A DNA stretch of 64,000 bases from a virus. Location of the stretch: positions 7,968-71,967 of IMG/VR virus record IMGVR_UViG_3300044695_006482; one strand, written 5' to 3'. The notes under the pieces are model-generated. The model was not told the DNA's origin, made no database searches, and worked only from the letters and a program-made list of their open reading frames with translations. Both the position numbers and the translations under genes were made by a program. This document shows positions 15,083 through 15,740 of this stretch, piece after piece. Each line of letters begins with the position of its first letter. Position 1 is the stretch's first letter.

Positions 15083-15740
15083 CACCGAACCGAAAGGGTC
15101 GGGCCAGCCGCTCCCGCGGCGCATCCTGTTTCTGAACTGCTTATGTAATGCTCTGATCTTGCTACGAACAACAACCGTGCCGAGCGCAGTGCCGAGCCCG
15201 TGATCGGGTGAGCCTGCCCAGCTTGGAGGGAAGACGTATCGGACAATGAGCCCTTAAGGGCCGGGGTCTGTACCAGGGGCGGCGATTTGCCTGCGGTCTG
15301 GCCTACGTATCGTCTGAATCCTGGCTTCGCCGGAGGGACAAGCTGACCCGCTTTGTGCGGGCCTCTCAGAGGAGGGCACCTAGGGATAGGTGTTCAGCCC
15401 TAACCGACCCGGATGGTATGGGGGAATAGGTGCAGCGGCATGATGCCGAGCCCAAGCCCGAGCCATCGGGCCTAGGTGAGCACTAGCAGGCGCGGGCTCT
15501 GAGCCCTTCGAAGCTAGTAGCTGTCTAGTGGGCAGGCAGTGAAGCTGACAGCGCAACCCTGGCGAACCGGGGCGCGACTGTCTTGCTGTACCTATGGGAA
15601 TACGCAACCCGGCTTACCCCGGCTCTGCAACATACGGTCACCGCGTGTTGACCGTGGCAATGGGCATTCGGCTCTGCCTAACACGCACAAACCATCTCCC
15701 CCAGAAGTTCCCCCTGGCGCACTGCGTCCGGGGGTCTTTT
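15083..15740 (+). ncRNA. Candidate large structured non-coding RNA
   Basis: No credible ORF; many local hairpins, several long-range helices, upstream promoter and downstream terminator. Confidence 0.6.
15710..15740 (+). terminator. Intrinsic terminator-like hairpin
   Basis: CCCCCTGG-CGC-ACT-GCG-T-CCGGGGG then TCTTTT. Confidence 0.6.

Follow-up and report, generated by a model that had tools for sequence, protein, structure and literature searches.

To our knowledge, very few bacterial or phage RNAs other than ribosomal RNA, RNase P, tmRNA and introns are both large and intricately folded. On a smaller scale, the known cis-acting antitermination RNAs span about 70–120 nt, the lambda late leader (from PR' to tR', the phage "6S" transcript) and the HK022 put RNAs are simple structures of about 70–200 nt, and the early region of T7 combines the tandem A1–A3 promoters with RNase III sites and a variable first gene. 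Among the giant forms, ROOL measures 659 nt and GOLLD over 800 nt, both are phage-borne, and Rfam includes profiles of both as well as of OLE (PMC12286853, in the part of that account used here). For GOLLD, ROOL, OLE and raiA, function is given as unknown or only partly known in the corresponding parts of PMC12286853 and PMC12968392.

Here we describe a locus that very probably encodes a further large, multi-domain structured RNA, of a family absent from Rfam. It occupies about 15084–15742 on the + strand of the window, by which we mean the whole 64,000-nt stretch of DNA analysed (positions 7,968 to 71,967 of IMG/VR record IMGVR_UViG_3300044695_006482), and comes from a 72-kb siphovirus-like phage from lake water that encodes portal, terminase and tail proteins. 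A first-pass annotation had proposed that the phage encodes a large structured RNA, which it could assign to no known class; Rfam searches, folding, covariation and RNA-library contigs all speak in favour of this, but the annotation missed the modular build of the locus, which consists of a leader, a swappable core and a universal 3' module.

A non-coding region downstream of a sigma-factor gene

The interval 14676–15785 is the longest in the window without a long open reading frame (ORF). The first-pass annotation had remarked on this dearth of ORFs, and among the 157 ORFs listed none of at least 100 aa lies between 14675 and 15539 on either strand; by our reading of the same list, the next-largest gap of this kind measures about 310 nt. 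The longest ORF within the non-coding region has 75 aa, and the ORF at 15539–16066 is merely an upstream extension of the frame that starts at the ATG at 15785. From that ATG to the packaging and tail genes all long ORFs lie on the + strand. The RNA locus sits just downstream of the phage's own sigma-factor gene, and the genes to its right are variable among relatives: the window's own first ORF is present in 3 of 28 loci, and relatives conserve the ATG at 15785 with a differing ORF behind it. Neither the 196-aa ORF upstream nor those at 15785–17206 could be given a function by Pfam, PHROGs or NCBIfam, and the Pfam and PHROG searches identified no Q-like or N-like gene among the flanking ORFs. 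One relative (L013) carries an inserted HNH-like ORF at this locus (Pfam HNH_3, E = 6.6e-4, below the cut-off).

Judged by its portal protein, the phage comes closest, among named phages, to Synechococcus phage S-CBS4 (40% identity); the best score of its sigma factor, though below the cut-off, is to the cyanobacterial RpoD subfamily. The earlier guess of a freshwater cyanophage stays plausible, though unproven.

At the left edge of the non-coding region stands an AT-only box (Table 1), which is unique in the window at up to three mismatches, with no copy expected by chance, and is retained in relatives whose surroundings are 48–67% identical. Two promoter-like sites follow, P1 and P2, and GTGCTAGGTT occurs exactly twice in the window, at P1 and at 15068. 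P2 had been called a promoter in the first-pass annotation. Neither P1 nor P2 was called by the consensus scan, whose output consisted of one promoter-like and one terminator-like site, both elsewhere, and the 19-nt spacing of P2 lies outside the 16–18 nt expected between sigma-70 hexamers; the site is nonetheless conserved in relatives, being near-invariant in five full-length aligned rows, where the spacer shows a few changes. In relatives whose leaders differ, TTGACA-N17-TGC-AAGGCT or TGC-AATCAT stands 50–90 nt before the core, and two to four putative tandem promoters of sigma-70 type are found among the relatives. A transcript start near 15084, from P2, is predicted. The leader that would follow forms the hairpins CCGAACC-GAAA-GGGTCGG and GCCGC-TCCC-GCGGC; in two relatives (L091 and L105) an unrelated leader extends up to the base preceding CAACAACC.

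Table 1. Features of the locus, in window coordinates.
Feature	Position	Strand	Description
AT-only box	14684..14702	+	immediately follows the upstream gene's stop; left border of the non-coding stretch
P1, putative promoter-like site	14835..14865	+	TTGCGC, 19 nt, TAGGTT after TGC
P2, promoter-like site	15047..15077	+	TTGACG, 19 nt, TGC-TAGGTT, extended -10 type; regex match
5' leader	15084..15168	+	two small hairpins; lineage-specific, outside the cassette
Core 5' domain	15169..15424	+	starts with invariant CAACAACC; RNAalifold, 10 close rows
5' domain closing helix	15175-15181 with 15418-15424	+	CCGTGCC with GGTATGG; RNAalifold
5' domain inner helix	around 15262-15311	+	RNAalifold
5' domain junction	15330-15333/15409-15412; 15342-15346/15393-15397	+	CCGG/CCGG; GCTGA/TCAGC; three hairpins inside
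Domain A	15426..15595	+	11-bp closing helix 15426-15436/15585-15595; invariant junction strands
Small hairpin	15609..15622	+	CCGG-CTTACC-CCGG
H-type pseudoknot	15634..15686	+	S1 15634-15640/15649-15655; S2 15643-15648/15681-15686
Inner hairpin	15656-15678	+	in the long loop of the pseudoknot; 100% paired
Conserved unpaired C-rich stretch	15687..15700	+	ACAAACCATCTCCC; precedes the long hairpin
Long hairpin	15701..15742	+	17 pairs, steps CCAGAAG / CCCCC / GGCGC, loop ACT, U-rich 3' side
Second hairpin	15746..15760	+	AGGTGC-TTT-GCACCT; 6 pairs, 2 changed on both sides, 99% paired
Small start-codon hairpin	15770..15787	+	GCTG-TGAGTTT-CAGC; directly before the conserved downstream ATG

Fold and covariation of the core and the 3' module

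The region has a G+C content of 62% and folds more stably than its shuffled counterparts, as the first-pass annotation had led one to expect. For 15083–15740 the z-score is -2.63 on the + strand (20 shuffles) and -0.83 on the - strand; for 15169–15748, with 100 dinucleotide shuffles, it is -3.36 on the + strand (none of the 100 as low) and -2.05 on the - strand (2 of 100). Many retained G-U pairs would become A-C on the opposite strand. All seven local hairpins of the annotation are present where it had placed them, and one of its four long-range helices is supported, namely ATAGGTGCAGC at 15426 with GCTGTACCTAT at 15585, where one of 11 pairs changes on both sides from A-U to G-C. The other three fail. 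CAGCTTG/CAAGCTG clashes with the local GCTGA/TCAGC, which becomes GCCAC/GTGGC or GCCG/CGGC in other lineages; CACTAG/CTAGTG clashes with ACTAGC/GCTAGT, itself with two compensatory pairs; and GCCTGCCCA/TGGGCAGGC clashes with the local TGCC/GGCA and GCCCA/TGGGC (five compensatory pairs) and is lost in L111, where the local pairing is retained with other letters. The crossing-helix pseudoknot once proposed falls with the last of these, and the supported pseudoknot sits in the 3' module instead.

The core (15169–15633) is 465 nt long and comprises two closed domains, the 5' domain and domain A, followed by a small hairpin. By our reading of the alignment, the closing helix of the 5' domain is retained in L015 with two changes on both sides, and a multi-base patch in L002 and L127 preserves the inner helix. 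Further changes concern whole elements: the hairpin at 15250 is 24 nt longer in L091 and L105, and the junction holds three, two, one or no inner hairpins depending on the lineage, with its closing pairs varying from TGA/TCA to CAC/GTG or CG/CG. The closing helix of domain A encloses a branched arm and the hairpin GACAGCGC..CCCTGG-CGAA-CCGGGG..GCGCGACTGTC. In alignment A5, which was itself fitted to the model of this domain (R1), 97.2% of 717 cells are paired and 14 of the 64 pairs are changed on both sides, against 2.4 +/- 1.3 in shuffles (none of 500 reach it) and 1–2 when partners are slid. The small hairpin at 15609 is swapped for CCTGT-CACC-ACAGG in L091, L105 and L111, and L015 and L127 have other hairpins in its place. 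The overlapping stretch 15603–15618 was also considered as an RNase P motif on the strength of a resemblance, and rejected as a plain hairpin that is swapped for others in relatives.

The 3' module (15634–15760) covaries in an alignment made by MAFFT from sequence alone (A6, 16 distinct sequences): 10 of its 44 pairs are changed on both sides, against 4.3 +/- 1.2 in shuffles (0 of 500) and 0–1 in slid controls. The compensatory change in homologues, a check that the first-pass annotation had proposed, is far above both shuffled and slid controls, and rests on about five independent lineages (the window clade, the L091 clade, L127, L015/L135 and L111/L122). At the 5' end of the module, 99% of the cells of S1 and S2 are paired; four of the seven S1 pairs are changed on both sides, and one of the six S2 pairs occurs in three types (CG 7, UA 7, AU 1), the other five being invariant. 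This pattern supports an H-type pseudoknot in which both stems covary, S2 through that single pair. The C-rich stretch ACAAACCATCTCCC is nearly invariant in the 16 sequences, which carry four different cores.

The long hairpin that follows is 99.6% paired, and its three outermost variable pairs change from AAG/CTT to ACA/TGT or GCA/TGC. Its inner part, 15710–15740, had been described as terminator-like; the scan did not call it, but it is conserved in relatives and covaries. The stem CCCCC-T-GGCGC/GCGTC-C-GGGGG is followed by TCTTTT, and the tail in relatives is TTGTTT or TTGCTT. The U-rich tail pairs with an upstream strand that covaries with it, a pairing that a plain terminator does not need, and the 17-pair stem with its small internal loops fits by shape only an RNase III site, for which an imperfect duplex of about 20 bp is characteristic. 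We infer that the hairpin is either terminator-like or a processing site. In the hairpin before the conserved ATG, the GAG of the loop may tentatively be taken as a ribosome binding site; its stem changes from GCTG/CAGC to GCAG/CTGC in L089 and L096 and to GCTT/AAGC in L017, and the hairpin is imperfect or absent in L111, L126 and L127.

Contigs of three metatranscriptome runs lie on 15169–15702, 15202–15611 and 15229–15418; being assembled contigs, they give no view of ends, strand or level, and they come from a type of library in which DNA is possible. Since the three have no common stopping place, they are silent on the ends of the RNA. Across four runs there was thin cover of 15746–16147 (depth up to 2.9) and no RNA contig on 13602–15075 or 16148–17200, which is not evidence of absence, and the depth on 13334–13601 derives from short pieces of other organisms' sigma genes.

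Relatives and the exchange of cores

Relatives are found on about 17 other contigs. Between lineages whole hairpins are gained, lost or replaced at fixed places. The core is 88–100% identical across phages in which the neighbouring sigma factor is only 45–79% identical. For instance, L008 and L089 have a core 99–100% identical to that of the window beside a 196-aa upstream protein of 46% and 67% identity and a sigma factor of 79% and 56%, respectively; L091 and L105 combine a core of 88–89% identity with sigma factors of 45–47% and unrelated leaders. Judged by these identities, the core behaves as a cassette exchanged between phages, and the near-100% identity within the window clade says more about recent transfer than about constraint.

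Other relatives have unrelated non-coding cores joined to the same 3' module. The domain A model was unmatched in the loci with other cores at E up to 1, so these cores do not share domain A with the type-1 core seen here. RNAalifold counted 10 compensatory pairs for the + strand of the type-2 core against 8 for its - strand, figures that do not discriminate the strands, and the other core types have visible hairpin changes between relatives. Behind the type-1 core at least five different first ORFs are found.

No cultured carrier was found: blastn of 14676–15790 against 50,697 phage records gave no match, and the cultured cyanosiphoviruses S-CBS3 and KBS-S-2A, whose sigma factor is 37% identical, have no unannotated gap above about 200 nt behind the related sigma gene. 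An 18-mer scan of 185,579 species genomes returned 20 stretches, of which only L149, a 3.4-kb contig binned with a Myxococcota MAG, is a true relative; we take it to be a phage fragment and not host evidence.

Readings of the locus and comparison with known systems

The explanation that we favour, with middling confidence, is an abundant RNA released at the long hairpin and acting in trans. Transcription would start from the promoter-like sites of the TGC-TAGGTT type just downstream of the sigma-factor gene; the long hairpin would then halt some of the polymerases or be cleaved by an RNase specific for double strands; an RNA of about 660 nt, discrete and stable, would accumulate and act on some macromolecule of the host or the phage (candidates being RNA polymerase or sigma, the ribosome, and a nuclease or defence protein); and the remaining transcripts would run on into the variable downstream genes. 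The size and complexity of the RNA are far above those of the known antitermination RNAs and within the range of ROOL and GOLLD.

Because only 43 nt separate the long hairpin from the ATG at 15785, leaving no room for a promoter, the RNA must also form the beginning of the mRNA downstream, and this would suit a cis-acting leader equally well. Such a giant leader, the chief rival and in our view possible but doubtful, would remain joined to its own transcript or act on that transcript alone; it would govern passage of polymerase through the 15701–15742 hairpin into the long rightward operon, by processive antitermination or attenuation, or would control translation of the first ORF. Its position between the promoter cluster and the first ATG suits this role, and the most widely kept part of the locus is the 3' module with the long, second and start-codon hairpins; moreover, the C5 runs at 15698–15702 and 15710–15714 could compete for the G5 run at 15730–15734 in the manner of an expression platform, and the long ORFs, uniform in orientation as far as those for packaging and tail, are reminiscent of the lambda late promoter and its terminated leader. 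The core is, however, several times larger and more branched than the known antitermination RNAs, the joining of unrelated cores to one 3' module would be odd for an element gripping the same polymerase, and the core type is uncoupled from the downstream gene, as the variety of first ORFs behind the type-1 core attests.

It is improbable that the locus works at the level of DNA, as a hot spot of recombination, an origin or a recently transferred mobile cassette, with its conservation due to recent spread and its apparent structure incidental to G+C-rich DNA. Sharp cassette borders, variable right-hand genes, the insertion in L013 and a core identity of 99–100% between phages with strongly diverged neighbours would all suit such an element, and a unique AT-only box with several promoters is also typical of origins. 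Recent transfer accounts for the identity within one clade, but not for the compensatory pattern between clades: diverged lineages keep the pairing by changes on both sides, far above controls, hairpins come and go as units, G-U pairs and folding energy favour one strand, and contigs from RNA libraries lie on the core.

That the RNA is a much-diverged member of a known family (GOLLD, ROOL, RNase P RNA, tmRNA, or a group I or II intron) is very unlikely. In a cmscan of the window against the 4227 families of Rfam 15, the sole match at gathering score was a tRNA, in agreement with the first-pass annotation, which could assign no class; GOLLD, ROOL, OLE, RNase P RNA and group I and II introns did not reach the covariance-model threshold in the window. 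At E up to 10 the region 14600–16100 matched only CC3513 (E = 7.5) and mir-182 (E = 9.3), 12 related loci gave no match to Rfam, and four homologues together with L015, again at E up to 10, gave four unrelated weak matches; GOLLD, ROOL, OLE, RNase P RNA, tmRNA and group I and II introns were absent from the matches of the region and of these homologues alike. ARAGORN found that same tRNA, the window's only one (tRNA-Met, 28905–28977, 13 kb from the RNA), and no tmRNA. What such a descent has in its favour is a phage-borne, lake-derived RNA of similar size with a GOLLD-like contrast of 3' and 5' conservation (as part of PMC12286853 presents that family), together with the short resemblance to an RNase P motif, which lies in a replaceable hairpin. 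A full-text literature search found no description of this RNA, though candidate lists in supplements could hold one.

Finally, small proteins or an unusual genetic code are scarcely credible: ORFs of 40–75 aa do lie on both strands, as expected at this G+C content, and the downstream gene's frame has no stop as far back as 15539, but indels of one and two bases, not multiples of three, separate close relatives inside those frames, the sequence before the ATG is retained where the ORF that follows is exchanged, helix variation is compensatory, and the neighbours have no Pfam or PHROG match suggesting a split gene.

Returning to a hairpin-released RNA that acts in trans, we tentatively suggest a wider picture, in which the locus would belong to a modular system of giant phage RNAs: a universal 3' module would be combined with interchangeable cores of 400–900 nt, of at least four or five unrelated types, always downstream of a sigma gene and a promoter cluster, and the cores would be trans-acting effectors swapped like immunity or anti-defence cassettes. 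If this is true, the cores would be, for example, decoys or scaffolds directed against host polymerase, ribosomes or defence nucleases, and the 3' module a common means of release and stabilisation. The joining of unrelated cores to one 3' module in sister phages, together with the near-constancy of one core across otherwise divergent phages, suggests strong, perhaps conflict-driven, selection on an RNA; and should the hosts be picocyanobacteria of fresh water, the phage-host pair in which the RNA acts would be one of ecological importance.

Set beside the lambda late leader and HK022 put, the locus would share the succession of a strong promoter, a non-coding leader, a hairpin with a U-rich tail and a long read-through operon, but its RNA is some 660 nt long and includes a pseudoknot besides its two closed domains of many helices. 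With the T7 early region it shares putative tandem sigma-70-type promoters, a long imperfect hairpin before the first ORF and a variable first ORF; T7, however, is not known to have a large conserved structured RNA between promoters and first gene, and RNase III cutting at our locus is suggested by the 17-bp stem with its covarying outer pairs. ROOL, so far as part of PMC12286853 describes it, is likewise encoded by phages or prophages, measures about 660 nt, contains pseudoknots and has no known protein partner or function; it differs in habitat and host range, and the RNA described here opens an operon and is preceded by a sigma-factor gene and a cluster of promoter-like sites. GOLLD and ROOL often lie beside tRNA genes or tRNA islands in phages and prophages, unlike the new RNA, and both assemble into multimeric cages made solely of RNA. 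GOLLD resembles it in being phage-encoded, found in lake samples and several hundred nucleotides long with many helices, and in having a conserved 3' region and a variable 5' region (again in part of PMC12286853); here the 5' cores are of unrelated types and not merely less conserved. With this locus the small set of giant phage RNAs very probably gains a further class, which offers a fresh object for structural work, with covariation-supported domains, a fixed genomic setting, evidence of expression in lakes and natural hairpin variants, as well as a functional handle absent from the other classes, in that sister phages carry the same 3' module with unrelated cores.

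Non-coding character and genomic setting

The interval 14675-15539 contains no ORF of at least 100 aa on either strand, the longest within it being 75 aa, in agreement with the ORF-poor stretch in which the first-pass annotation had placed a large structured RNA. The G-C skew is positive at 15100-15550 and negative in the coding flanks. For 15083-15740, the folding energy of the plus strand is -292.9 kcal/mol (z -2.63, 20 shuffles), against a z of -0.83 for the minus strand. With 100 dinucleotide-preserving shuffles, 15169-15748 reaches a z of -3.36 on the plus strand (0 of 100 as low) versus -2.05 on the minus strand (2 of 100 as low), so that folding exceeds that of shuffled sequence, and all the local hairpins listed in that annotation are present in the sequence.

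At gathering score, the 4227 models of Rfam 15 yielded a single match in the whole window, a tRNA-Met at 28905; at E up to 10, the region 14600-16100 gave just two (E 7.5 and 9.3). Twelve related loci had no match to Rfam at gathering score, and four homologues together with the diverged locus L015 returned only four unrelated ones (E of at least 2.6). The element thus matches no Rfam family, in keeping with the first-pass annotation, which could assign it to no known class. ARAGORN found no tmRNA, blastn against 50,697 phage records gave no match, and a literature search recovered no description of this RNA.

The virus record, of which the window is bases 7968-71967, is 71,967 bp long and rated complete by CheckV. 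Among the products encoded in the window are ThyX, a sigma factor of the sigma-70 family, a DNA polymerase of family A and a primase, together with terminase, portal, tape-measure and tail-fibre proteins. A picocyanobacterial host is plausible on three grounds: the portal protein gives Synechococcus phage S-CBS4 as the nearest named phage, with 40% identity across 71% of the query; the top-scoring subfamily of the sigma factor is cyanobacterial RpoD (227 bits, under the cut-off of 384.5); and at least half of the sampled words are held by 14 of the 24 listed public runs, 13 of these 14 being labelled lake water metagenome.

Features of the element and its surroundings (window positions; L-numbers are related loci on other contigs)
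Feature	Position	Strand	Remark
Sigma-70-family sigma factor	13190-14059
196-aa ORF, upstream	14085-14675		weak RHH_10 (ribbon-helix-helix) match in the L013 homologue (7132-7518), E 0.007, below cut-off
P1, promoter-like site	14835-14865
P2, promoter-like site	15047-15077
Candidate RNA	about 15084-15742	+
Leader	15084-15168
5' domain	15169-15424
Domain A	15426-15595
3' module	15634-15760
S1 stem	15634-15640 with 15649-15655	+	four covarying pairs
S2 stem	15643-15648 with 15681-15686	+	one pair with three types (CG 7, UA 7, AU 1), five invariant
Further hairpin	15746-15760	+	two covarying pairs
Other-core group			L096, L099, L104, L106, L017
Other-core group			L010, L020, L093
Third other-core group			L012/L107
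Fourth other-core group			L013/L016, low GC

Covariation and predicted structure

Covariation among homologues, a check proposed by the first-pass annotation, was found in two parts of the element. For domain A, a structure drawn on the window sequence was used to build a covariance model (R1) from seven closely related rows, to which all matches were then aligned; of these 15, 12 are distinct, and L015, L135 and L111 are among them with scores of 107-114 bits. In this alignment, which is fitted to the model and hence biased toward the structure, 97.2% of 717 cells are standard pairs and 14 of 64 pairs are changed on both sides. The corresponding count is 2.4 +/- 1.3 in 500 shuffles, none of which reaches 14, and 1-2 after displacement of the 3' partners by 1-3 columns. 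These changes can also be seen in a MAFFT alignment, where the junction strands are invariant across all lineages. The changes include GCAGC/GCTGT to GCGGC/GCCGT, TGCC/GGCA to CGCC/GGCG, GCCCGA/TCGGGC to CAGCGA/TCGCTG, ACTAGC/GCTAGT to ATCAGC/GCTGAT, and GGGCT/AGCCC to GGAC/GTCC and GGACC/GGTCC.

The 3' module was aligned with MAFFT, without fitting to structure, from 16 distinct sequences carrying four different cores. Here, 99.4% of 702 cells pair and 10 of 44 pairs are changed on both sides, versus 4.3 +/- 1.2 in shuffles (0 of 500) and 0-1 when slid. Since S2 pairs with the loop of S1, the two stems are predicted to form an H-type pseudoknot. The terminator-like hairpin is a 17-pair stem whose outer step joins the U-rich tail to the upstream strand, and three pairs of this step covary (AAG/CTT, ACA/TGT, GCA/TGC). 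A plain intrinsic terminator can do without such pairing; a site for double-strand-specific processing or for protein binding would need it. Immediately upstream of the ATG is a small hairpin whose loop contains GAG; its GCTG/CAGC becomes GCAG/CTGC in some rows, and the hairpin is imperfect in three. In L015 (6880-6945) and L135, about 64 extra nt between pseudoknot and long hairpin include a second copy of GCACAAACCATCTC and resemble a local duplication to which a hairpin has been added. In the distant relative L019 (about 7700-7775 and 8250) the hairpin-plus-start-region unit (CCCC-AGGCG..TGCGTCT-GGGG, with ATG about 45 nt later) occurs twice, and can thus precede more than one gene.

For the 5' domain the support is qualitative. 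RNAalifold on ten close rows predicts CCGTGCC/GGTATGG as its closing helix, which in L015 is kept with other letters, as read by eye from alignments. Multi-base differences in L002 and L127 at 15268-15272 and 15297-15306 are mutually compensating and preserve one helix. L091 and L105 have a hairpin at 15250 that is longer by 24 nt, and in one RNA contig 15253-15302 gives way to 75 other letters. The number of hairpins inside the GCTGA/TCAGC junction varies: the window has three, L105 and L126 have two, L127 and L015 have one, and L111 has none. The pairs that close the junction vary as well (to CAC/GTG or CG/CG), as do the outer ones (CCGG/CCGG to CCAG/CTGG).

Of four long-range helices suggested initially, the one joining 15426 with 15585 stands, whereas the other three each use a strand needed by a better supported local helix. 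One of these, GCCTGCCCA/TGGGCAGGC (15212 with 15529), shows two changes on both sides in L015, where the local alternative is likewise kept; in L111 the local alternative survives and this pairing does not. It may be an alternative or switching pairing.

Modular build and spread of the core

Relatives were sought with flanking proteins and short exact patterns as probes, and candidates were confirmed by nhmmer. The element was found on 10 viral contigs (the window's own included), six further metagenome contigs and one 3.4-kb MAG-binned contig. In one nhmmer round, nine of 50 new loci were true relatives (metagenomes 8 of 30, of which two are contigs already represented by viral loci L008 and L105; genomes 1 of 20), the rest being chance 18-mer matches. 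Core identity to the window is 99-100% in L002, L003, L008 and L089, 93% in L090, 89% in L091, 88% in L105 and about 74% in L015 (alignable blocks only), with L127 and L111/L122 as further intermediate relatives.

The window clade and the L091/L105 clade are unrelated left of 15169 and alignable from CAACAACC at that position onward; the last 150 nt (15634-15787) recur at many more loci, where the middle part bears no relation to that of the window. These borders point to a four-part region: a promoter cluster with leader, a swappable core, a universal 3' module and a conserved ATG with a variable ORF. The window's kind of core (type 1) is followed by at least five different first ORFs, and the one in the window is present at 3 of 28 loci. 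All 24 of the 28 loci whose flank is long enough have a sigma gene upstream of the hairpin (43-100% identity); L149, L126, L090 and L086 extend less than 700 nt on that side.

In L008 and L089, respectively, the 196-aa protein adjoining the core is 46% and 67% identical to the window's and the sigma factor 79% and 56%, with the left non-coding part at 48-67%. The sigma factors of L091 and L105 are just 45-47% identical, and the core is nonetheless 88-89% so. Purifying selection alone hardly explains the core identity, loops included; recent core exchange among diverged phages would be the simpler reading.

Several loci show further rearrangements. Right of the conserved ATG, 15790-16425 is replaced in L002 and L003, with similarity resuming at about 16425 and again from 17500; the RNA is thus immediately followed by a variable gene slot. 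In L096 (3600-4100, minus strand) a second, unrelated non-coding core of about 390-450 nt, without an Rfam match, fills the same slot; it is nearly identical in L099, L104 and L106 despite differing promoter regions, and has diverged in L017, for instance at a hairpin (CTGAGC/CTCAG to CTGGGC/CCCAG). L090 (498-996, minus strand; 1161 nt of contig examined) lacks about 80 nt including S1 and the 3' strand of the domain A closing helix, being either a defective copy or an assembly artefact. L149 (3405 nt in whole, from a Myxococcota MAG bin) carries a full type-1 RNA about 99% identical plus a phage ORF; it is probably a misbinned phage fragment and no evidence on the host.

Transcription and possible mode of action

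GTGCTAGGTT occurs at 14856 and 15068 only, with one-mismatch forms at 7790 and 14253; together with an upstream TTGNCG, the two exact sites look like extended -10 promoters. A consensus scan called neither the promoter (15047-15077) nor the terminator (15710-15740) of the first-pass annotation. Relatives have two to four tandem sites, each TTGACA-N17-TGC-hexamer, and every type-1 core has one such promoter-like site 50-90 nt before it. With up to one mismatch, the plus-strand motif GTGCTAGG(T/C)(T/G) is confined to 7790-7799, 14253-14262, 14856-14865 and 15068-15077, and may be the phage's main promoter type. The first copy stands at the head of the rightward gene block, behind a clean, seemingly bidirectional terminator (7708-7733); the second falls within the start of the 196-aa ORF as annotated, upstream of the conserved part of that ORF. 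Relatives of this ORF match from about residues 50-80 onward only, and its true start may be near 14270-14330. The gene is absent from the L091/L105/L093/L096 group. Directly after its stop codon, a 19-nt box of A, T and few C (ACATATACATACATTTTTT, 14684-14702; genome 66% G+C) is unique in the window and found at the same place in distant relatives with different cores. L013 has an insertion between the non-coding region and its homologue of the 196-aa ORF: a 186-aa low-G+C ORF (7502-8062, minus strand) that weakly matches an HNH endonuclease (E 6.6e-4, short of the Pfam cut-off) and is possibly a free-standing homing endonuclease at this recombination-prone locus.

RNA-library contigs from three studies, which show presence and not ends, strand or true level, cover 15169-15702 (750 nt, L091-like variant, depth 16), 15202-15252 plus 15303-15611 (435 nt, depth 47) and 15229-15418 (190 nt, depth 25), and one of 193 nt (depth 2.9) covers the downstream gene. 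Between 15742 and the ATG at 15785 there is no space for a promoter, and hence the rightward genes must be transcribed through the RNA and its hairpin.

The element is very probably a genuine structured RNA of an undescribed family. We favour, with about even confidence, an RNA that would be released and stabilised at the long hairpin and would then act in trans. In favour of this, the element is large and has two closed domains, the core type does not go with a particular downstream gene, one core has spread like a cassette, and the same 3' module is joined elsewhere to unrelated cores. The position at the operon head and the strong conservation of the 3' module fit equally well with a cis-acting leader governing read-through or translation, the main rival, which we consider possible and clearly less likely. 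A purely DNA-level element is improbable, a diverged member of a known family more so, and a coding sequence the least credible, all three fitting the data poorly.

The order of promoter cluster, leader, hairpin and operon is reminiscent of the lambda late leader and the T7 early region. Unlike GOLLD and ROOL, the element has no tRNA neighbourhood and no match to their models. It shares with both a phage origin, a length of several hundred nucleotides, extensive base pairing and the lack of an assigned function, and it further resembles GOLLD in combining a conserved 3' part with a variable 5' part (PMC12286853).
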